DNA of 64,000 bases from Deltaproteobacteria bacterium (GTDB lineage: Bacteria > Myxococcota_A > UBA9042): NCBI GenBank assembly GCA_016875335.1, contig VGRO01000003.1, positions 10,343 through 74,342 on the forward strand, in the 5' to 3' direction. Of this stretch, positions 247-62,909 are shown in pieces; positions within the stretch are counted from its first letter, which is position 1, and each line of letters begins with the position of its first letter. Below the pieces are notes generated by a model. The model worked only from the letters and a program-made list of their open reading frames with translations. It had not been told where the DNA came from and did not search any database. The translations under genes and the position numbers were made by a program.

Positions 247-1388
247 CGCCGCCCTCGCGTGCTGCCGTTGGCGCCGGACCCGCGCGCCGTCTGGGTTCGT
301 CGTGCGGGGCCCTTGGCGCGCGAACCCTGCGCTGGCGCAACCGGAGACGACGGGCCCTCCTTGGGTGCCGGCCGACCGGCTGCGGGCGAGCGCTCGCCCT
401 GGGCCCGGGCGGCGCCGCGATGCGCGGGCTGGGCCGTCGGCCCGGGTCCAGTGCTCAACTGCGGCGCGCGCGCTTCGCCCTTGCGCGGATCCGGCGGCAG
501 GGCGAAGCCCCCGACGTGGCCTTTGCTCTCCAGTTGGGCAATTTCCCGCTCCTCCAGAAGGCGCCACTTGCCCTGCGCCAGCCCCGCCGTCGTCACGCCC
601 GCGTACGAGATGCGCCGCAGACGCACCACCGGGTGCCCGACGCGCTCAAGCAGGCGACGCACCTCGCGGTTGCGGCCTTCGAGCAGCACCAGCCGCAGCC
701 AGCAGTTCGCCGCGGTTTGTTTGACCACCGCGACTTCCTCGGCACGCGCCGGGCCGTCCTCTAGCCGCACGCCCATGCGCAGCCGGGCCAGCGTCTCGTC
801 GCTGGGCACGCCGCGCACCCGAGCCTCGTACACGCGGTGCACCGCGAACCGCGCATGGCCCAGGCGCTCCGCAAGATCGCCGTCGTTGGTAAAGAGCAGC
901 ACGCCCTCGGTGTTGAAGTCGAGCCGACCGACCGACCGCAGCGCCAGGTCCTTGGGCACCAGCCAGTACACGAGCGGTCGATTCTCGGGGTCCGCAGCGG
1001 CGCACAGGTAGCCGACCGGCTTGTTCAGCGCCAACACGACGCGGCGGGCCGGAAGCTTGAGGCGCTCGCCATCCAGCCGGATCTCGTCGCGATCGGCTTG
1101 CACGCGCACGCCCAGTTGGGTCACGACCTCGCCGTTGACCTCGACGCGCCCGGCGGTGATGAGCGCCTCCGCGGCCCTGCGAGACGCCACCCCGCAGCGC
1201 GACAGCACCTTTTGCAGGCGCTCGCCGCTCGGCGCGGTCGCTTTGGGTCGTTGGATCTTGGCGTTGGGGGCAGCCACGGCGAGGTCGGCAGTCCGCGACG
1301 GCGGTTTGGGGTCGCGAACGGGGGCGGCATTGTGCGGGGCAGGGCGGCAAAAGTCCACGGCGCTACCGCCGTGGCGCCGCAGCTCCAT
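243..1388 (-). CDS. rluB: 23S rRNA pseudouridine synthase, RluB/RsuA family (S4 domain plus PseudoU_synth_2), with an Arg/Pro-rich disordered C-terminal tail
   Basis: The S4 domain (GERLQKVLSRCGVASRRAAEALITAGRVEVNGEVV) aligns with E. coli RluB (SEKLQKVLARAGHGSRRE...). The catalytic region reads RLDFNTEGVLLFTNDGDLAERL followed by LLEGRNREVRRL. The start is ambiguous: ATG at 1388, ORF-track start at 1403, or GTG at 1277. Confidence 0.8.
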   Translation of the reverse strand: MELRRHGGSAVDFCRPAPHNAAPVRDPKPPSRTADLAVAAPNAKIQRPKATAPSGERLQKVLSRCGVASRRAAEALITAGRVEVNGEVVTQLGVRVQADRDEIRLDGERLKLPARRVVLALNKPVGYLCAAADPENRPLVYWLVPKDLALRSVGRLDFNTEGVLLFTNDGDLAERLGHARFAVHRVYEARVRGVPSDETLARLRMGVRLEDGPARAEEVAVVKQTAANCWLRLVLLEGRNREVRRLLERVGHPVVRLRRISYAGVTTAGLAQGKWRLLEEREIAQLESKGHVGGFALPPDPRKGEARAPQLSTGPGPTAQPAHRGAARAQGERSPAAGRPAPKEGPSSPVAPAQGSRAKGPARRTQTARGSGANGSTRGRR

Positions 1389-1803
1389 CGATCCGCTGCA
1401 CAAGGTCGGCCAGCGTGGTGCCGTCGACGATGCGCAACGCCTCGGCGTGCACGTCGGCCAGCAAGGTGCGCACGGCGCAGGTTCGTTCGTCGGCGCACTC
1501 CTGGCAGCGCTGATAGGCGGTTTTGGACAGGCACGGCAGCGGCGCGAGTGGCCCGCTCAACATGCGGATCACGTCGCCGAGGTTGACGTCGGCCGGAGGC
1601 GATCGCAAAACGTAGCCCCCAGCCTTGCCGCGCTTGCTCGCAAGGACACCCCCGTTCTTCAACTCGACCAGGATGGCTTCGAGGAACTTGCGTGGAATCC
1701 CCTCGGCCTGCGCGATGGCGGCGGCCTGGACTGGAGCGTCCGTTGGAGCGCGCGCCAGGAACACCAGGGCCTTGAGGCCGTAGCGCGACTTCATCGGCAG
1801 CAT
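1363..1803 (-). CDS. Rrf2-family transcriptional regulator (IscR/NsrR-like wHTH)
   Basis: MKSRYGLKALVFLA...KFLEAILVELKNGGVLASKRGKAGGYVLRSP is the typical Rrf2 helix-turn-helix and wing. There are cysteines in the C-terminal half (CLSKTAYQRCQECADERTC) that could ligate an Fe-S cluster. Confidence 0.8.
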   Translation of the reverse strand: MLPMKSRYGLKALVFLARAPTDAPVQAAAIAQAEGIPRKFLEAILVELKNGGVLASKRGKAGGYVLRSPPADVNLGDVIRMLSGPLAPLPCLSKTAYQRCQECADERTCAVRTLLADVHAEALRIVDGTTLADLVQRIDGAAAPRR

Positions 1804-1845
1804 CCGTCCCTCGCAGGCGCCGGCCGTGGCCGCGCGGCCGCAACC

Positions 1846-3534
1846 TTATGGCGCCAACGCCGCCGATGGCAATGGTGCGCGGCGCCGCCGCCAACCCAGC
1901 CGGGCCAGCCACGCCGCGCACCCAACCGTCGTCAACCACAGCGGCACATCGCCCCACAGCCGATAGGGGCTTGCCAGGTCGCGCAACGGGACGTCGACCA
2001 GCACCGTTTCTGCACGGCCGACCTGCGTCTCGCTCTGGAACACGCCCGCCGCGTCGATGTAGGCGCTTACCCCCGACACCGTCGAACGGACCAGCGGCCG
2101 CCGCAATTCCACAGCGCGCGCCTGCTGGACCATCAGGTGCAGGTCCGGCGCCGGTTGCGGTCCGAACCACACATCGTTGGTCAGGTTGACCAGCACCTGC
2201 GCGTCGCCGGCCTCGTCGCGCAGGAACTCGGCAAACAACGCCTCGTAGCAGATGTTGACCAGGACCTTGCCGCGGCCGAGTTGGACCAGGCCCGATGTGG
2301 TGCCCTCGTCAAAGTTCGACACCCCAGGGATCGCCTCTTTGAGCGCTGGGAACCACCGTGTGCCGGGCAGGTATTCGCCGAACGCGAGCAGGATCTGCTT
2401 GTCGTACGCAAATGTCTGCCGGCCGCGATCGAGCACGATCGCGCTGTTGCGCGCTTCCTGTACCCAAAGGGGGTCGAAGCGGCGAAGGGTGCCGAGCAAG
2501 AGCGGCATTGGCAGCCGCCGCGACCATGCGATCACGCGCTCCTTGCTGCGCAGCAGCCAGTGGTTGGCCTTGGTCTTGATCTTGGGCGCGGCAGGTCCGA
2601 CCTCGTCCGGCACCCAGAAGAACGGAAAGGCCCCTTCGGGCCAGATGAGCGCATCGCGATCGGCAAGGCGGCCCTGGCGGAGCGCGTCTTCGCTCATCTC
2701 GAGGAGTCGGTCGAGCACCGTCACCCGTTTCTCGGCGGCGATCGCCTTCTTTTCGCCCAGGGTCGCGTTCTGCTGGACCAGGGCGGCGCGCCATGTCCCC
2801 GTCGCCGGGTGGGCGGCTACCTGGTGCATGCGCAGGGCGCCGTATCCCGCCCACGCCGCCGCGACCACAGCCGCGCCGACCGCGGGCCGCATCGAGCGGC
2901 GCGCAAGCGCCATCGCCACCAGTTGTGCGACGGCCAGGGCCAATGCGCTGACGCCGATGACGCCCACCAGGTCCGCCGCCTGCATCCACAGGGGCGTCCT
3001 GAAGAACGCGTTGGCCACGTACCACCGGAAAAGCCACGGTAGAGCGAACTCGCAGACCGCGATCGTCACCGCGACCTGGGCGGCCCGCAGCGCCAGCGGG
3101 CAACCCGAGCGCCGCGTCCACGCCGTCACTGCCGCAAACAGCCCCTGATGCAGCGCCATCGCCGCGGCGTGCAAGCCCACAAGGCCGTAACCGGCTGCCC
3201 AAGGCATCGAGCTCATTTCCACGGCCGTGAACGCCAGGAACGCATAGACCACCGCGTGCAGCACGACGCCGGCCACCCACCCGGCCAGCAGGGCCAATTG
3301 CCACCGCGGCTGCCGCACTTCGATCCAGTAGAGCAGCGGCACCCAGCCGCCGATCGCCAGCGGCCACCAACCGGTCGACGGATAGGCCAGGCACAGCAGG
3401 GCGCCTGTGACCAGGCCGATGCCGGTGGCCGCCCGCCATTCGCGCCGGGCGGCCGACGTCGGCTTGCCGCAGCGTTGGGCGTCGCCCGCCACCCCGCTTT
3501 GCCCATGGGGGCGCTTGTGATAGTCAACCGCCAT
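1846..3534 (-). CDS. lnt: apolipoprotein N-acyltransferase (N-terminal polytopic membrane domain plus CN-hydrolase domain)
   Basis: The CN-hydrolase catalytic region includes VNICYEALFAEFLRDEAGDAQVLVNLTNDVWFG and the N-terminal half has multiple hydrophobic helices. The ORF runs to 3885; the first ATG (MAVDYHK) is at 3534 and the true start is uncertain. Confidence 0.85.
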   Translation of the reverse strand: MAVDYHKRPHGQSGVAGDAQRCGKPTSAARREWRAATGIGLVTGALLCLAYPSTGWWPLAIGGWVPLLYWIEVRQPRWQLALLAGWVAGVVLHAVVYAFLAFTAVEMSSMPWAAGYGLVGLHAAAMALHQGLFAAVTAWTRRSGCPLALRAAQVAVTIAVCEFALPWLFRWYVANAFFRTPLWMQAADLVGVIGVSALALAVAQLVAMALARRSMRPAVGAAVVAAAWAGYGALRMHQVAAHPATGTWRAALVQQNATLGEKKAIAAEKRVTVLDRLLEMSEDALRQGRLADRDALIWPEGAFPFFWVPDEVGPAAPKIKTKANHWLLRSKERVIAWSRRLPMPLLLGTLRRFDPLWVQEARNSAIVLDRGRQTFAYDKQILLAFGEYLPGTRWFPALKEAIPGVSNFDEGTTSGLVQLGRGKVLVNICYEALFAEFLRDEAGDAQVLVNLTNDVWFGPQPAPDLHLMVQQARAVELRRPLVRSTVSGVSAYIDAAGVFQSETQVGRAETVLVDVPLRDLASPYRLWGDVPLWLTTVGCAAWLARLGWRRRRAPLPSAALAP

Positions 3535-4186
3535 GGCCCGTGTTTTCCTGTTTTCGGAGATGGGCGACCGGTCGCCGGCCCGCGCGGCGCTGGCGCAGGG
3601 CCCCTGGACCGTGACGGCACGCCTCTTGCGCGGCACCTTCCTGGATTGCCCGATCGGCCTGCCGCCGGATCTGGCCGTCGTCGAACCGGGACCACTGCGC
3701 TCGCCGGAGCCGATCGCGAGCGCCCTGGCGGCCCATCCGGTCGTCGGGCGGACACCTTGGCTCTTGGTGGTCGATCCGGACCGCGTCCACTTGGCGCCCG
3801 CGCTTTCGTGCAACGATTTCGTCTTGCGCGGCTTCCCTGCGGCCGAGCTCGCCGCACGGGCCGAGCGGGTGTTGGGCGCGCGCACGCGTCATGGCGCCGT
3901 CGTTCGCAGTGGCCCGATCGCGCTGGACCTGGCCGCGCACACCGTCCGAGTGGGCGACCTGCCGGTCGAGGTCAAACCCCAGGAGTTCGCGCTGCTGCGC
4001 TATCTGGTGCAGTTCGCGGGCCGGCCGCTGTCGCGCGATCAGTTGTTGCGCGCCGCGTGGGGACCCGGGTACGCGGGCGGCGAGCGCACCGTGGACGTGC
4101 ACATCCGTAGACTGCGCGCACATCTGGGATCGGCGGCCCACCACATCGAAACGCTGCGCGAAGTCGGCTACCGCTGGTTGGCATGA
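3533..4186 (+). CDS. OmpR/PhoB-family DNA-binding response regulator with a degenerate receiver domain (orphan; no adjacent kinase)
   Basis: The C-terminal winged-helix trans_reg_C domain reads EVKPQEFALLRYLVQFAGRPLSRDQLLRAAWGPGYAGGERTVDVHIRRLRAHLG...IETLREVGYRWLA. The N-terminal about 110 aa is receiver-like but lacks the canonical acidic pocket. Confidence 0.75.
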   Translation: MARVFLFSEMGDRSPARAALAQGPWTVTARLLRGTFLDCPIGLPPDLAVVEPGPLRSPEPIASALAAHPVVGRTPWLLVVDPDRVHLAPALSCNDFVLRGFPAAELAARAERVLGARTRHGAVVRSGPIALDLAAHTVRVGDLPVEVKPQEFALLRYLVQFAGRPLSRDQLLRAAWGPGYAGGERTVDVHIRRLRAHLGSAAHHIETLREVGYRWLA

Positions 4187-4283
4187 CCGCGCTGCGCGCA
4201 CGGCCAGCCGCGCGTCGTGATCGCGGGTCGCCCACGTCGGGGTGTCGGCGAACATCGAGCCGCCCCCGATTGCGCCGGGTGAC

Positions 4284-4634
4284 TTACACGAACTCGATGA
4301 GTGCCATCTCGGCGGCATCGCCCGTGCGCCGGCCGAGCTTGAGCGTGCGGGTGTAGCCGCCTGGCCGCGCGACATACTTCGGGCCGAGTTCGCCGAACAG
4401 GCGCGCCACCAATCCGTTGTCGCGCAACTTGGCGAAAGCGAGGCGCCGCCGGTGGATCGAATCCTCCTTGGCCATGGTGACCATGGGCTCGATCCATCCG
4501 CGAAGTTCCTTGGCCTTGGCGACCGTCGTCGTGATGCGGCCGTGCTCGATGAGCGACTTGCACAGGTTGAGCAGCATCGCCTTGCGGTGCGAGGTCTCGC
4601 GACTGAGCTTGTTGCCTTTGTTCAGGTGGCGCAT
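4284..4634 (-). CDS. rplQ: 50S ribosomal protein L17
   Basis: [45 protein letters not shown] is the L17 signature. It is the last gene of the alpha operon. Confidence 0.95.
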
Positions 4635-4699
4635 GGGGTCCTCTGCTGCTGGCTGCCGCAGTCGCTGCGGCCCGGGGGCGGTCGTGGTCGTGGAGGGGC

Positions 4700-5809
<1,110 letters not shown>

Positions 5810-5937
5810 GGTGGTGCCTGCCTGCGAGCACTTCGCCCGCGCTGATGTCGCGGCCCGCGCAATGTGCGATGGCCGCGCCGGTCGAGAAAATCCTGCTTGC
5901 GCCTGTTGCGACTCCGCCGGCGCGAGGGGCGCGCCGA

Positions 5938-33456: not shown

Positions 33457-34143
33457 TCAAGCCGCCACCTTGGCCGTGCGCCGCTTGAAGGCCTGGCCAA
33501 AGAAGTTGCCCAGGTAGCCGGCCGCCGAGCCGACCGAGAACACCATCGACAGGGTCAACATCAGCGCGCCCACCTTGTGGTAGTCCACGGTGCCGGACAG
33601 CACGATGAAATCGGTGTGCAGTTCGAAATGGATCAGCAGCCCCACCAGTCCAACCATTTGCAGCGCAGTCTTCCATTTGCCCCAGCGGTCGCTCGGCACG
33701 TCGAAGCCTTCGTCGGCGGCGATCGCCCGCAGGCCGGTGATCGCGACCTCGCGCGACAACAGCAGGATCGCCATCCACGCAGGTGTACGTCCCAGGTGGA
33801 CCAGTTCGACGAGGCACGCCAAGACCAGCAGCTTGTCGGCCAACGGGTCCAGGAACTTGCCGAACGCGCTCTGCAAGTTCAGGTTTCGCGCCAGCCAGCC
33901 GTCCAGGAAGTCGGTGATCGAGGCCACGGCGAAAAGCGTCGTCGCCCAGAACGCGGCGCGCAGCGCCAGCCATTGTCCGCCCGCCGCGCACGGATCGGAC
34001 AACTCCATCTGCCACATGACCAGCGGGATGGCGGCGACCCGACCCATGGTCAAGATGTTGGGCAGGTTGAAAATCTCTTCGCGAAGCGCCGACTTGGGGC
34101 GACCGGGCCTTCTGCGTTTCTTGGCGGGTTTGGCTTCGGCCAT
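33457..34143 (-). CDS. pgsA: CDP-diacylglycerol--glycerol-3-phosphate 3-phosphatidyltransferase
   Basis: The CDP-alcohol phosphatidyltransferase motif is ITDFLDGWLARNLNLQSAFGKFLDPLADKLLV, with multiple TM helices. The ATG at 34143 was verified; the ORF-track start at 34260 adds 39 non-homologous residues. Confidence 0.85.
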   Translation of the reverse strand: MAEAKPAKKRRRPGRPKSALREEIFNLPNILTMGRVAAIPLVMWQMELSDPCAAGGQWLALRAAFWATTLFAVASITDFLDGWLARNLNLQSAFGKFLDPLADKLLVLACLVELVHLGRTPAWMAILLLSREVAITGLRAIAADEGFDVPSDRWGKWKTALQMVGLVGLLIHFELHTDFIVLSGTVDYHKVGALMLTLSMVFSVGSAAGYLGNFFGQAFKRRTAKVAA

Positions 34144-34250
34144 GGCCGGCAGTATGGCACCAGCGGCCGCAGCGGCCAACCGGCGATTGCCGCGACCGGC
34201 GTCGCGCGCTACTTTGGCTGCCCCGTGCCGACCAAGGCCGCAGCGACACC

Positions 34251-34919
34251 ATGACGCCATCGACCCTGCACCACCTGGCCGCCCATCACGGCGACTTTGA
34301 CCAGTTCGCCGCGCTGATGCAGCAGACTGCTTCTGGCCGCTTCAATGAGGTGTTCTGGGGCGTGTGGCGGCAATACGTGGCGCCGGCCCTGCCGGAGACC
34401 GGCCGCGTCGTCGACCTCGGCTGCGGCCCCGGCGGACTTTTCGCGCCGTTGCGCGCCCGGCATCCCGACGTTGCCCTCATCGGTGTCGAAGTCCAACCCG
34501 CGATGCTGCGCGAGGCGAGGGCCGTGGCGGTGCATGTGCGTGCAGAGATCCTCGAGGCTGACCTCAACCTGCCGCTGCCGCTTGCCGACGCTTGCGCAGA
34601 CGCGGTGACGTTGGCCCACGTGCTGCACGAATTGCCCTGGCCGGTTCCGCTCTTGCGCGAGGCGCTGCGCATCTTGCGCCCGGGCGGCGCGTGCCTGGTG
34701 TTCGACTGGGTGCGGCAGCCTCTGCAGAGCTACGTCGAGGGCGCGGAACTCGACGAGAACCTCCTGCAGCACTTTCGCGAACACTGCTTGTACACACCCG
34801 ACGACCTCGCCTTCTTGTGCCAGCGCGCCGGCTTCGAGGTGCGCGAGATCATCGGCCGGCGCGGCGGACGCTTTGCCATGATCGCGCTCGCCCGACCCGC
34901 GCTCGCCGAGCCCACGTGA
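34251..34919 (+). CDS. class I SAM-dependent methyltransferase
   Basis: Motif I is VVDLGCGPGG, followed by post-I LIGVEV and motif II/III (AVTLAHVLHELP, LRPGGACLVFDW). Its stop overlaps the GTG of the downstream DUF692 gene as GTGA. Confidence 0.8.
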   Translation: MTPSTLHHLAAHHGDFDQFAALMQQTASGRFNEVFWGVWRQYVAPALPETGRVVDLGCGPGGLFAPLRARHPDVALIGVEVQPAMLREARAVAVHVRAEILEADLNLPLPLADACADAVTLAHVLHELPWPVPLLREALRILRPGGACLVFDWVRQPLQSYVEGAELDENLLQHFREHCLYTPDDLAFLCQRAGFEVREIIGRRGGRFAMIALARPALAEPT

Positions 34920-36565
34920 TCGCGCCGCCGGCTGACCTGGGTTTGGGGCTCGGCCTGCGCGGTCCGCACCTGGCGCAGTGGCTGCGCGAGCCCCCACCAG
35001 CCGTCCAGTGGATCGAAGCCATCACCGACAACTATCTGGCCAACCGCGGTTGGCTGCGCCGCGTGCTTGTGCGCTTGGCCGAGTCCCGTCCGGTCGTCTT
35101 GCACGGCGTCGGGCTGAACATCGGTTCGACCGATCGGCTCGACCGCATCTACTTGCGCCAGGTCCGCCAGTTGGCGGCCGAAGTCCGCGCGCCCTGGGTG
35201 TCGGACCACCTGTGCTGGACCGGGGTGGGCCGGCTGCAGACGCACGACCTGCTGCCCATGCCGTACACCGATGCCGCGCTGCACTGGTTGGTCGAGCGGA
35301 TCCGCGCGGTCCAGGAACTGCTGGAACGGCCGCTGGTTCTCGAAAACCCCTCGACCTACCTGGCGTTTCGCCAATCGACCTGGACCGAGTGGGATTTCCT
35401 GGCCGAGTTGTGCGAGCGCGCCGACTGCGGCCTGCTGATCGACGTCAACAACGTACACGTCTCCGCCTTCAACCACGGGTTCGACGAGGCCCGGTGGCTC
35501 GCTGCCGTGCCGTGGGCGCGCGTTTGGCAGTTGCACGTCGCCGGCCACACCACGTACGCGACCCACAAGCTCGACACCCACGTGGGACCGGTGCCCGAAG
35601 CCGTCTGGCGCCTCTACGGCGAGGCGTGGGCGCGCTGCGGTGGCCGCTCGACGTTGCTCGAATGGGACCAGGACATCCCAGACCTCGACGTCGCCGTAGC
35701 CGAGTTGTGCAAGGCGCGCGCGTGGCAGGCTGCCGAGCGGTCGAGCGGCAGCGTGCAGGCGCGCCGCGCCGGCTCGGCGGTCGGGGGCGACACCAATGCC
35801 CCGGCCGGGCTGCGCGCCCTGCAGCGCGCGGTGTTGCGGCAGATCGCGACCGGCAGGACGAGCACCGCCGTACAGCGACAGGTGCTGCCGACCTCGCAAC
35901 TGACCGGCCGCGCACGCGTGGCCATCCACGGCCGCATGTACGCGTTGCGACTCGACGGCGCGCTGGCCGAGGATTTCGCGAGGACCGCGCAACTGCTCGG
36001 CAGGCGGGCGTTTGCCGCGGCGTGTGCGGGCTATCGCAGGCGCCATCCCTCGCGGCACTGGGCACTGGAGCAGTACGGCATCCGGTTTGCCGCGTGGCTG
36101 GCCAGTCAACCGCGGTTCGCGGGCAACCCCGCGCAACTGGCGCGGCTGGAGTGGGCCGTCGTCCAGACGCGCCTGGCGCCGGGTTGCGACCCGCTGGCCA
36201 TCGACTGGGCGGACCGCGTCGGCGGCACGCCCTTGGCCCAATGCTGCTTGCGCTTTGCCCCGGGCGTCCGCGTGCAGCATGTCGCGCCCGAGGTGTGGCA
36301 CATCTGGTCCGGGCAGGCGCTGCGCAGCGGCAAGCGCGTCGCGGTGCGGCTTTCTCCGGCCGGGCGCCACGTGGCAGTGCGGTCCCTGTCGCCGGCCGAG
36401 GCCGCCGCCCTATCCGCACTGCGCGCCGGCATGCCCATCCTGCAAGCGTGTGCGGCGGTCGCGCGGCGGTCTGCGGCCTGGGGGGCCGAAGTGCAGGTCA
36501 GGCTGGGCGATTGGTTGCGCGATTGGGTGGCCGACGGCGCGGTCGTGGCGGTCGAGCCCGCGTGA
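34916..36565 (+). CDS. DUF692 (MNIO, MbnB/TglH/HvfB/BufB-like) enzyme fused to its DUF2063 (MbnC/HvfC/BufC-like) partner domain
   Basis: The N-terminal DUF692 signatures are GLGLGLRGPH, EAITDNY, HGVGLNIGS, SDHLCW, LENPSTY and LLIDVNNVHVSAFNHGFD. The C-terminal DUF2063 signatures are VAIHGRMYALRLDGALAEDFARTAQLLGRRAFAAACAGYRRRHPSRHWALEQYGIRFAAWL. No precursor-peptide ORF of 60 aa or more is adjacent. Confidence 0.85.
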   Translation: MIAPPADLGLGLGLRGPHLAQWLREPPPAVQWIEAITDNYLANRGWLRRVLVRLAESRPVVLHGVGLNIGSTDRLDRIYLRQVRQLAAEVRAPWVSDHLCWTGVGRLQTHDLLPMPYTDAALHWLVERIRAVQELLERPLVLENPSTYLAFRQSTWTEWDFLAELCERADCGLLIDVNNVHVSAFNHGFDEARWLAAVPWARVWQLHVAGHTTYATHKLDTHVGPVPEAVWRLYGEAWARCGGRSTLLEWDQDIPDLDVAVAELCKARAWQAAERSSGSVQARRAGSAVGGDTNAPAGLRALQRAVLRQIATGRTSTAVQRQVLPTSQLTGRARVAIHGRMYALRLDGALAEDFARTAQLLGRRAFAAACAGYRRRHPSRHWALEQYGIRFAAWLASQPRFAGNPAQLARLEWAVVQTRLAPGCDPLAIDWADRVGGTPLAQCCLRFAPGVRVQHVAPEVWHIWSGQALRSGKRVAVRLSPAGRHVAVRSLSPAEAAALSALRAGMPILQACAAVARRSAAWGAEVQVRLGDWLRDWVADGAVVAVEPA

Positions 36566-36572
36566 CGCCGCG

Positions 36573-41381
<4,809 letters not shown>

Positions 41382-60891: not shown

Positions 60892-61065
60892 CGTTTGCGT
60901 GGCGCGGTAGCCCTGGGGCGGCGCCGCAATCCTGAACAAGCGACCCGGTGTCCATGGATGCGACCTGCCGGCGGGCGGCGGATGTCGCACGGCAGCCCTG
61001 CTGCCCATTGGTCCTTGCCACAAGTTTGTCACAACGGTACGCTGGCATTCCCCGTCCGGTTGGAC

Positions 61066-61614
61066 ATGCCCGCTTCGCTCCGACCCTTGCCGCTTGCCCC
61101 CTGGCGCCGCCTTGCCGCGGCGGCCCTTGCGCTGCCGTTGTTCGCGCAATTCGTGGGGCTGTCGCTGGTCTGCCGGTGCGGCGGTTGCCCGACCAGCAAG
61201 GCCTGGGGCGTCGACGCGAACGCTGGCCGGCCTGCGTGCTGCCATGGCGACGAAGAAACGACCGCTACCGCAGCGGCGCCGGCCTGCGCGCCAACGGCAA
61301 GCGCCAAGAACAAGGCCGCCGACAAGGCTGCGGCGCTCTGCGGAGTCGCCACCACCGTCAAGGCCGGCCAGGAATTCAGCGCCGAGGTCCTGGTCACCCA
61401 GGTCGCCGACGGACCGGCTGTGCCCGGACTGTCGTTCACGGTCAAGTTCATCCACGTCGGCATGGGCCACGGCGGCAGCAAGGTGCCGATGGTTGAAGAG
61501 GCCGGTGGCGGCCTGTACAAGGTCACCGCGCTCAAGCCGTCGATGGCCGGCAACTGGCGGATGACCCTGACCGCGGGCGCCGACGCGTTCGCCTTCGACT
61601 TCAAGGTCAACTGA
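61066..61614 (+). CDS. small membrane-anchored Cys/Met/His-rich protein, putative copper-binding (FixH/YtkA-like fold suspected)
   Basis: The TM helix is LAAAALALPLFAQFVGLSLV. The Cys clusters are CRCGGCPTSK and CCHGDEE. The C-terminal beta-rich domain carries HVGMGHGG and MAGNWRM motifs. Its stop overlaps the ATG of the downstream multicopper oxidase (TGATG). Confidence 0.5.
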   Translation: MPASLRPLPLAPWRRLAAAALALPLFAQFVGLSLVCRCGGCPTSKAWGVDANAGRPACCHGDEETTATAAAPACAPTASAKNKAADKAAALCGVATTVKAGQEFSAEVLVTQVADGPAVPGLSFTVKFIHVGMGHGGSKVPMVEEAGGGLYKVTALKPSMAGNWRMTLTAGADAFAFDFKVN

Positions 61615-62909
61615 TGGAGGCTTGCATGAACGTACGCCCTCTGCGGACCGCACCCCATTGGCTGGCCCGGGCAGCCGTGCTGCTGACTGTGGCCTGTACA
61701 GGCGCAGGCCACGGCACCACCGCGGGCTCCGACGCCCACGGCTCTGCCGATACGGGCCATGGCCACGCCAAGCTGACCTGGGAACAGCTGGCGCTCGGCT
61801 GCACGCCGATGGGTACCGGCGAGGCCGCCCACATCATGTGCAACCACGGCCACAGCCTGAGCCTGCACAACGACGACCTGTGGTCGCGGCGGCTCTACTT
61901 GCTCGCCCACGGCCACAAGGACCCCCACGAACTGGAGCTGATGCACGCGATGAACGGGCTGCCGCCGCCGCTCACGCCCATCCTCAAGGCGCGGCTGGGC
62001 GAGCGCGTGCGGCTGCGGGTCATCTCGTACGGGCCGCTTTTCCACACCTTCCATGTACACGGCCACGTATGGAACGAGGCGGGCAAGCGCAAGGACGTGC
62101 AGACCATGGGTCCGGCCGAGGTGTACGACGCAGCCGAGTTCTACGCGGGCGCGGGCGCCGACGACCCCGCCGAGCGCGCCGGGCCCGGCGACTGGATGTA
62201 CCACTGCCACGTAGAGACCCACGCCGCGACCGGCATGTGGGGGGTGTTCCGGGTCCTGGAGCCCAAGACCACCGACCTGCCGGGCGCCGACGGCCGCTAC
62301 CCGACGGAGGTGCCGCTGCCGCTCGGCGCTTCCGGGGCGACGGTCGACGTGTACGTGGTGGCGGCCGAGGTGCCGCTGTCGGTTGCGCGGGTGTTCAGCC
62401 CGGCCACCAAGAGCCTGGATCTGGTCGAGCGGCTGGCGCGGCTCTACGTGCCGCAATCCGACGAGGCGACCTTTCTGGCCGCCACCACCAGCAGCGTGCG
62501 CAAGCAGTTGGCGGACAAGAAAGAGTCGTGGACGCCGTGGATCCTGGCGCTGCGCCAGGGCGCCAACGTCCGCGTCCACCTGCGCAACCTGATGCCCGGG
62601 GTGCCGGTGTCGCTGCACCCGCATGGCGTCGCCTACGACAACAAAAACGACGGAACGCTGCCGCAGAACGTCGCGGTGCAGGGTGGTCCGCCGGTGCTGT
62701 ACGAGTGGCGCGCCGACACGCCGGGCACTTGGCCGCTGCACGACCACACCAAGATCATCGAGAACCTGGGCCGCGGCCTGTTCGCGGCCATCGTGGTCAA
62801 GTCGCCCGCCGAGGAGCAGCAGCTGCAGCGCGACTACCTCGTGTTCATGCACGACTACGACATGGACTGGGTGATGGGCAGCGACGAGCCGGGGGGATCC
62901 GGGCACTGA
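61614..62909 (+). CDS. two-domain multicopper oxidase (cupredoxin x2) with a His-rich N-terminal region
   Basis: Cu-site motifs FHTFHVHGH and WMYHCHVETHAATGMWGVF in domain 1, LHPHGV and WPLHDHT in domain 2. The N-terminal His-rich stretch is GSDAHGSADTGHGHA and the lipoprotein-like signal is AAVLLTVACTGAG. Confidence 0.8.
   Translation: MEACMNVRPLRTAPHWLARAAVLLTVACTGAGHGTTAGSDAHGSADTGHGHAKLTWEQLALGCTPMGTGEAAHIMCNHGHSLSLHNDDLWSRRLYLLAHGHKDPHELELMHAMNGLPPPLTPILKARLGERVRLRVISYGPLFHTFHVHGHVWNEAGKRKDVQTMGPAEVYDAAEFYAGAGADDPAERAGPGDWMYHCHVETHAATGMWGVFRVLEPKTTDLPGADGRYPTEVPLPLGASGATVDVYVVAAEVPLSVARVFSPATKSLDLVERLARLYVPQSDEATFLAATTSSVRKQLADKKESWTPWILALRQGANVRVHLRNLMPGVPVSLHPHGVAYDNKNDGTLPQNVAVQGGPPVLYEWRADTPGTWPLHDHTKIIENLGRGLFAAIVVKSPAEEQQLQRDYLVFMHDYDMDWVMGSDEPGGSGH

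Follow-up and report, generated by a model that had tools for sequence, protein, structure and literature searches.

MNIO-PME1 systems, which include the bufferins, oxazolins and fontiphorins, are among the most abundant pathways of the ribosomally made and post-translationally modified peptide (RiPP) type and are linked to copper stress. To our knowledge, every characterised MNIO-PME1 case comprises two proteins and an adjacent precursor. In a 64,000-nucleotide stretch of a Deltaproteobacteria bacterium genome (GenBank assembly GCA_016875335.1, contig VGRO01000003.1, positions 10,343 to 74,342; G+C about 70%), hereafter the window, one gene encodes both the MNIO enzyme and its partner, directly behind a gene for an S-adenosylmethionine (SAM)-dependent methyltransferase (MT) and with no apparent precursor gene. 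The locus raises the question of what such an enzyme acts on and whether the MT has a part in it. We find that it is a new variant, in architecture and in gene context, of the MNIO-PME1 system of the bufferin/oxazolin type, and no new kind of system. Our leading explanation, to which we give an even chance, is a single-chain maturase of the bufferin type that acts on a substrate encoded in trans and forms a two-gene operon with a class I SAM-dependent MT.

A single-chain MNIO-PME1 protein

The sequence-only reading of the window had placed a DUF692 and a DUF2063 domain in one polypeptide, and profile searches bore this out for both families. The protein matched PF05114 (MbnB_TglH_ChrH, the MNIO family) with an E value of 1.4e-97 and 326.5 bits against a cutoff of 25, covering profile positions 2-262 of 263, and PF09836 (DUF2063) with an E value of 1.3e-13 and 51.4 bits against a cutoff of 27.2 (residue ranges in Table 1). 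Of the NCBIfam models, the MNIO_BufB equivalog (NF050167) was passed marginally, at 317.7 bits against a cutoff of 310; those for HvfB (222 bits against 360), HvfC (20.8 against 142), MbnB (35.8 against 325), ChrH (34.7 against 600) and ApyH (95.2 against 400) all failed.

Both halves of the protein are conserved across 42 homologues, with a mean column identity of 42%, and residues H63, D97/H98, E143, D176, N179, H207, D220, H222 and E249 are invariant in their alignment. Going by the MbnB and TglH structures, we take these to be the ligands of the multinuclear iron. A TIM-barrel fold carrying this conserved His/Asp/Glu/Asn set is predicted. Alignment with the solved DUF692 protein 3bww of Histophilus somni, the best Protein Data Bank (PDB) match to the N-terminal domain, showed that the invariant residues fall in the motif blocks HG, SDHL, EN.S, D.NN, H.AGH, D.H and E.D; 3bww is itself listed in the MNIO-PME1 set of PMC13097082.

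The AlphaFold2 (AF2) model of the fusion was confident, with a predicted local distance difference test score (pLDDT) of 93.1 and a predicted template modelling score of 0.91. The linker between the halves stands out, with a pLDDT of 50-66 over residues 271-290 and no secondary structure over residues 272-296. Beyond it, the last 254 residues can be aligned from end to end with separate partner proteins of ~260 residues that are encoded after unfused BufB genes (matches at 66 loci; for example, query positions 4-249 with positions 4-255 of a 259-residue protein, E = 2.8e-19). Because of this end-to-end alignment, the C-terminal half is, as judged by sequence, a complete PME1/BufC with a DUF2063 domain and a winged-helix-like region, and no fragment. 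The latter is a strand/helix region of winged-helix or RRE-like character (about residues 443 to 548 in the AF2 secondary structure) and is a putative RiPP recognition element (RRE). No structural match to the RRE fold was obtained, both fold searches being saturated by TIM barrels, and the C-terminal half had no match when its sequence was searched against the PDB.

The fusion is genuine and no assembly artefact, because many independent assemblies encode the same protein, or a similar one, in one piece. An identical protein is encoded on an independent Logan contig, at least 40 homologous one-piece proteins were found in a search of 5.8 billion proteins, and about 130 of the best 150 hits of a 42-sequence profile against 1.84 billion cluster representatives were full-length fusions of 520-636 residues. 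Far from being peculiar to this locus, the fused architecture is widespread, and it has also arisen in canonical precursor-bearing clusters (loci L067 and L068). In a neighbour-joining tree of MNIO domains, the window enzyme lies within a monophyletic, all-fused clade (P0001-P0038), mostly from Myxococcota-type metagenome-assembled genomes (MAGs). This clade is separate from the bulk of unfused BufB enzymes, to which the window MNIO domain is 50-58% identical, and other parts of the tree contain a few fusions of independent origin. The contig CAMDBH010000071.1 (L005/L007), titled 'MAG: Klebsiella pneumoniae', also encodes a fused MNIO, 45% identical to that of the window; since a near-identical place on another contig (L004) carries a Dicty_CTDC/DUF4215 protein, the bin label looks wrong.

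By analogy with BufBC, HvfBC and FonBC, the two halves would work as one maturase. In the proposed mechanism, a BufB-like multinuclear-iron MNIO domain is joined covalently to its DUF2063+RRE partner (BufC/PME1). The partner half would bind what is most likely a Cys-rich peptide with a Sec signal, and the MNIO half would use O2 to convert Cys to metal-binding 5-thiooxazole (or oxazolone-thioamide) heterocycles in the cytoplasm, before export. The likeliest type of substrate would be a CKG-, GCGGKG- or EGKCG-type peptide encoded in trans.

Precursor genes in the fused clade and its relatives

No precursor gene had been apparent next to the fusion, and this still holds. Among stop-to-stop open reading frames (ORFs) of at least 20 residues in the five sampled contexts that carry the MT-fusion pair (the window and loci L002, L003, L167 and L168), none besides MT and fusion is conserved. 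The gaps of 107 and 7 nt that flank the operon in the window leave no room for a non-overlapping precursor gene. A heuristic based on signal peptides and Cys content gave no credible precursor in the 64-kb window. Nor did searches of the window, L002, L003, L167 and L168 with 49 precursor seeds harvested from canonical loci (phmmer) and with regular expressions for CKG, GCGGK, EGKCG and DUF2282-type motifs; these searches did recover the positive control in locus L006. Codon-usage scoring of small ORFs in all gene gaps picked out only ribosomal proteins and a YtkA-like protein at 61060-61614.

This YtkA/FixH-like protein (+ strand) has a Cys-rich N-terminal segment, CRCGGC...ACCHGDEE, and its gene is directly followed by a multicopper-oxidase-like gene (61614-62909, +; Cu-oxidase_2 and Cu-oxidase_3). 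The two form a copper-handling pair about 25 kb from the MNIO.

Judged as a bufferin cluster, the locus has the DUF2063+RRE partner, but fused rather than separate, and lacks an adjacent small, Cys-rich precursor with a Sec signal of the DUF2282/Buf1, Buf2 (6- or 12-Cys) or EGKCG kind. A DoxX (BufD) gene, frequent though not universal in such clusters, was likewise not found among the genes called within about 6 kb on L001 and L002, which are identical or orthologous contigs. The locus thus belongs to the bufferin type by its enzyme and falls outside it by its cluster, with no bufA and no DoxX.

Across the fused Myxococcota-type clade as a whole, loci typically have no precursor gene beside the enzyme. 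The genomic contexts at hand for this clade are a sample, the contigs scan having listed mostly unfused BufB loci; in eight of them besides the window (L002, L003, L004 and L167-L171) a local precursor is missing, and the genes listed upstream of the fused MNIO on the P0023 contig include no small one. The sole exception is L006, where an 80-residue ORF with a Sec signal, a candidate precursor, lies just upstream of the fused gene (5666-5908, +). Its product includes the sequence GCGGKGGCGGKGGCGGK and has three GCGGKG repeats and a Lys/Ala/Asp-rich tail, and the motif GCGGKGGCGGK also opens the precursor beside an unfused BufB at L032. Next to the unfused relatives fetched from genomes, a Sec-signal peptide is nearly always encoded just upstream, rich in CKGxNxCKGxGGC, DGCSGKDGC or DUF2282-like motifs, and the precursor categories described for MNIO-PME1 clusters in PMC13097082 match these. 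The independently fused enzymes of the gammaproteobacterial loci L067 and L068 adjoin bufferin-like precursors, so fusion as such is compatible with ordinary bufferin biosynthesis.

The substrate gene of the window enzyme most likely lies elsewhere in the genome. This inference from absence is the simplest reading because the local absence is clade-wide and because sizeable fractions of bufferin precursors were reported to have no genetic linkage to MNIO genes (PMC12452194). Three options had been put forward from the sequence (a new substrate class, a precursor encoded in trans or a methylated product), and of these the precursor in trans fits best.

The methyltransferase and its linkage to the fusion

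The MT scored above the cutoffs of Methyltransf_11, 23, 25, 31 and 12, with E values of 1e-12 to 1e-17 (about 1e-17 for 11, 23 and 25), and has the Rossmann-like fold and Gly-rich motif I of a class I SAM-dependent enzyme (AF2 pLDDT 95.4). No NCBIfam subfamily model reached its cutoff, the best being DVU_1556 at 56 bits against 155; the ApyS model failed at 24.8 bits against 400. Sequence similarity to small-molecule MTs does not extend past the Rossmann core. The orthologues form a sharply delimited family of about 90 clusters, with a self score of 503 bits, orthologues at 424-165 bits and all further hits at 118 bits or below. Its members keep (near-)invariant residues H8, H12, H13, R30, H126, E127, H174, E177, H178 and C179, including an HFREHC motif, and the pattern of invariant residues beyond the SAM motif suggests a metal- or substrate-binding site.

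Translational coupling of the fusion to this MT through a GTGA, as proposed from the sequence, is indeed present (Table 1). The proposal had also called for the genomic context of the pair to be compared in other Myxococcota, and the pair recurs in L002, L003, L167 and L168, whose MNIOs are 67%, 51%, 52% and 49% identical to that of the window, respectively. Pair-bearing MAGs include GCA_005776855.1 and GCA_009692465.1. The 4-nt overlap is shared by L002, and the genes are spaced by 8 nt in L003, 6 nt in L167 and 0 nt in L168. Apart from the pair, L167 and L168 have no gene in common with the window, and their flanks are wholly different. In trees, the linked MTs group in a single clade inside the unlinked orthologues, with a branching that mirrors that of the linked MNIOs. 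Because two of the loci have had their flanks replaced and the MT tree agrees with that of the MNIOs, the MT-fusion pair is a conserved two-gene module, and the mirrored branching points to a single ancient juxtaposition kept since. The MT is probably co-transcribed with the fusion, and it has been co-inherited with it throughout this one subclade.

At L167, three co-directional genes precede the pair with gaps of 11-39 nt (781-5280, +), encoding a six-Cys DUF4920 lipoprotein, an SDR and a ferric-reductase-like membrane protein. As partners or substrates they were set aside, since they occur in no other MT-fusion locus.

Outside the subclade, the two genes are found apart. The sibling MAG L172 has a 67%-identical MT that is monocistronic, with no MNIO within 10 kb, and the neighbours of unlinked MT orthologues show no conserved theme. 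Sister fused MNIOs lack this MT and are coupled to Sua5, to DUF5916 or to an unrelated MT and a glycosyltransferase. In a sister subclade, the fused MNIO overlaps a downstream gene for Sua5/TsaC (threonylcarbamoyl-AMP synthase) by 4 nt in three different contexts (L004, 7659-8720; L169, 3725-4864; P0023 contig), a recurrent coupling to a housekeeping gene. Two upstream proteins were considered as partners or substrates and rejected: L169 has an MT gene upstream of its fused MNIO gene whose product is unrelated to the window MT, and a 206-residue protein in L004 is likewise unrelated to it and has no Pfam hit. With orthologues that mostly stand alone and sister fused MNIOs that do without it, the MT cannot be demonstrated to be 'dedicated', as it had been called.

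How the adjacency is best explained has to be weighed, and whether the MT participates in the system at all stands at roughly even odds. For methylation by the MT of the modified peptide, or of a related product, the odds fall a little short of even; that the MT is functionally unrelated to the fusion is possible, though somewhat doubtful. The best-surviving alternative to the leading explanation, which we nonetheless consider rather unlikely, is an adjacency without functional meaning, in which a lineage-wide, housekeeping-type MT had the fused MNIO land downstream of it once and the MNIO matures a trans-encoded peptide alone. The single origin of the linkage, the nesting of linked MTs among unlinked orthologues and the monocistronic MT of L172 are all as expected from this. 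The presence of fused MNIOs in unrelated operons elsewhere, including the 4-nt Sua5 overlaps, suggests ready hitch-hiking. Against it, the coupling has outlived divergence to 49-52% MNIO identity and a full turnover of the flanks, which goes beyond usual neutral synteny.

These same facts of retention, the 0-8 nt spacing or 4-nt overlap kept while both flanks were replaced and the congruent trees that imply long co-inheritance, are what would be expected of the explanation favoured by the sequence-only reading, which we regard as unlikely: that MT and fused MNIO form a dedicated two-enzyme pathway with a non-canonical substrate and obligatory methylation. The substrate could then belong to a new class of precursors, or be a small molecule or a full-length protein, and the methylation could be, for example, S-methylation of a thiooxazole thiolate or C- or O-methylation of the MNIO product. 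The MT occupies the position usual for the precursor gene, some His, Glu and Cys residues beyond the SAM motifs are invariant in its family, and PMC10635010 (ApyS) and PMC12636315 (S-methylation by ChrH) offer precedents for MNIO-linked methylation. However, equally similar MT orthologues stand alone, including that of the closely related L172, and sister fused MNIOs work without this MT, the MT in L169 being unrelated to it. A near-typical BufB MNIO with a full PME1 partner also argues for an ordinary Cys-rich peptide as substrate.

A further, quite improbable explanation is that the fused clade belongs to no dedicated peptide gene cluster and acts as an independent protein-modifying enzyme, inherited vertically, with several substrates encoded elsewhere; its product would be capped by the MT in the window subclade. 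Among these substrates could be the large, Cys-rich secreted repeat proteins that occur in several of the loci, and the co-evolving MT would cap the thiooxazole thiolate or another MNIO product to give a methylated heterocycle new to RiPPs.

That the substrate is the 1602-residue secreted, Cys-rich repeat protein encoded next to the fusion, or similar large Dicty_CTDC/DUF4215 proteins, so that bona fide proteins are modified in place of a small peptide, is very improbable. The neighbour is syntenic in L002 and L003, Dicty_CTDC/DUF4215 proteins lie within about 6 kb of the fused MNIOs of L004 and the P0023 contig, and PMC12452194 proposes bona fide proteins as MNIO substrates. However, none occurs in the fetched parts of L167, L168, L169, L170, L171 or L006, the neighbour is transcribed convergently and has no similarity to bufferin-type motifs, and such repeat proteins recur across the fetched loci, one of them near the MT-only locus L172. 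The neighbour itself was rejected as a substrate, being conserved only in syntenic relatives. Least probable of all is that the locus is what remains of a bufferin cluster after loss of the precursor, inactive or in decay: a local precursor, DoxX gene and regulator are indeed lacking, but the metal-ligand motif residues are invariant, both halves are conserved in the 42 homologues, the reading frames are intact in many assemblies and the structure prediction is confident.

The bufferin-type maturase with a trans-encoded substrate remains the leading explanation, and several observations weigh against it. The margin over the BufB cutoff is only 7 bits, and the HvfC RRE model, with a weak match over residues 331-544, falls far short of its own cutoff. 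On its long branch, the fused clade is sister to canonical BufBs, which leaves room for a divergent chemistry or substrate, and its members sit in housekeeping-looking operons (Sua5, DUF5916, GT2) and not in recognisable RiPP clusters. No candidate substrate was found, 'in trans' being an argument from absence within 64 kb, and no DoxX, sigma/anti-sigma or DUF2282 gene is found nearby. On the side of the MT, the nearest structures in a Foldseek search are the small-molecule MTs NovO/CouO, Hvo_0019 and CysG/BelI. In addition, about 30 metagenomic loci with MT orthologues of 41-67% identity, from a scan seeded with family motifs (L087 left out, as it equals the L002 contig), have neither an MNIO nor a DUF2063 ORF in their flanks, which were fetched over up to 7 kb.

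Locus layout and known MNIO systems

The features of the locus are collected in Table 1. No sigma-70-like promoter was found in the 107-nt gap by a promoter scan and no Rfam element by an Rfam scan; promoter/terminator and Rfam scans of 33.3-36.9 kb likewise gave nothing meaningful. The convergent 1602-residue neighbour contains Dicty_CTDC repeats, three Laminin_G_3 domains and DUF4215/myxo_disulf repeats, and is absent from L167 and L168. A long run of minus-strand genes at about 4000-25600 of the window includes, by their translations, ORFs resembling ribosomal proteins. Because of this run, the MT-MNIO module appears to sit in the core chromosome, with no sign of a mobile island.

Table 1. 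Features of the MT-fusion locus, in window coordinates
Feature	Position	Strand	Basis
Class I SAM-dependent methyltransferase (MT), 222 aa	34251..34919	+	Pfam Methyltransf_11/23/25
SAM motif I of MT, VVDLGCGPGG	34407-34436	+	Translation
GTGA, start codon GTG of fusion (34916) overlapping MT stop codon; translational coupling	34916..34919	+	Sequence
Single-chain MNIO-PME1 (BufB-BufC) fusion, 549 aa + stop codon	34916..36565	+	Pfam, NCBIfam, AF2
MNIO (DUF692, PF05114) TIM-barrel domain, aa 10-271	34943..35728	+	PF05114 match
Ala/Gly/Ser/Arg-rich low-confidence linker, aa 272-301	35729..35818	+	AF2 pLDDT
DUF2063 (PF09836) helical domain of partner module, aa 302-395	35819..36100	+	PF09836 match
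C-terminal half of partner module, aa 396-549	36101..36562	+	Alignment with stand-alone partner proteins
Intergenic gap, presumed promoter and 5' untranslated region of the two-gene operon, 107 nt	34144..34250		Sequence
CDP-alcohol phosphatidyltransferase gene, divergent from MT	33457-34143	-	Pfam match on identical contig
1602-aa protein, convergent to fusion, 7 nt past fusion stop	36573-41381	-	Pfam

Among the closest known systems is BufABC(D), the bufferin system of Caulobacter vibrioides (PMC11626156; for the landscape, PMC12452194). The window protein shares with it the BufB equivalog match and the DUF2063+RRE partner module, its 50-58% identical relatives adjoin Cys-rich precursors with Sec signals, and the chemistry expected by analogy is the conversion of Cys to 5-thiooxazole. 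Unlike that system, the window has B and C in one polypeptide, no bufA precursor and no DoxX/BufD in the locus; it has an MT in the operon, no copper-stress sigma/anti-sigma gene seen nearby, and belongs to a Myxococcota-type MAG lineage. The oxazolin system HvfABC of nontypeable Haemophilus influenzae (PMC11252979) and the fontiphorin system FonABC (PMC13097082) likewise use an MNIO-PME1 pair and act on repeated Cys-Gly-Lys motifs, and the GCGGKG repeats of L006 resemble EGKCG. The window differs from both in failing the HvfB and HvfC cutoffs and in having no repeat peptide.

A precedent for substrate recognition and MNIO catalysis in one chain is MovX, which, as cited in PMC11252979, contains an RRE-like domain of its own and does without a partner; going by that citation, MovX has an RRE-like domain only, as opposed to the complete C-terminal DUF2063+RRE partner here. 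TglHI and MbnBC are more distant, with identities of 18-24% and a failed MbnB cutoff, and no MbnC-, MbnA- or TglA-type genes were seen at the window locus. A SAM MT that acts on an MNIO product is known from the unrelated pathway of aminopyruvatide, made with ApyHI and ApyS (PMC10635010). There, however, the modified residue is Asp, not Cys, H and I are separate proteins, and the cluster, unlike the window, has an adjacent precursor, a P450 and a B12-dependent radical SAM enzyme; the window proteins fail the ApyH and ApyS cutoffs.

The papers on the MNIO landscape, bufferins, oxazolins and fontiphorins have PME1 partners almost always encoded beside MNIO genes, and in them we found no MNIO-DUF2063 fusion and no MT in a bufferin-type cluster. 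This agrees with the statement that a fused enzyme with an MT is not a described RiPP system; MNIO clusters with an MT as such are already on record in another class, that of ApyHI and ApyS.

The enzymology of the fused protein is expected to be familiar, and its link to the MT may be incidental. The fused, precursor-less clade of Myxococcota type and its conserved MT module nevertheless appear to be undescribed and experimentally tractable. A large clade of one-chain enzymes provides, for studies of structure and mechanism, a complex that is stoichiometric and stabilised by nature, and it shows that genome mining based on the locus misses the substrates of a whole lineage. If the MT does act on the MNIO product, methylation would be added to thiooxazole chemistry; if it is not involved, the locus warns against equating translational coupling with pathway membership.

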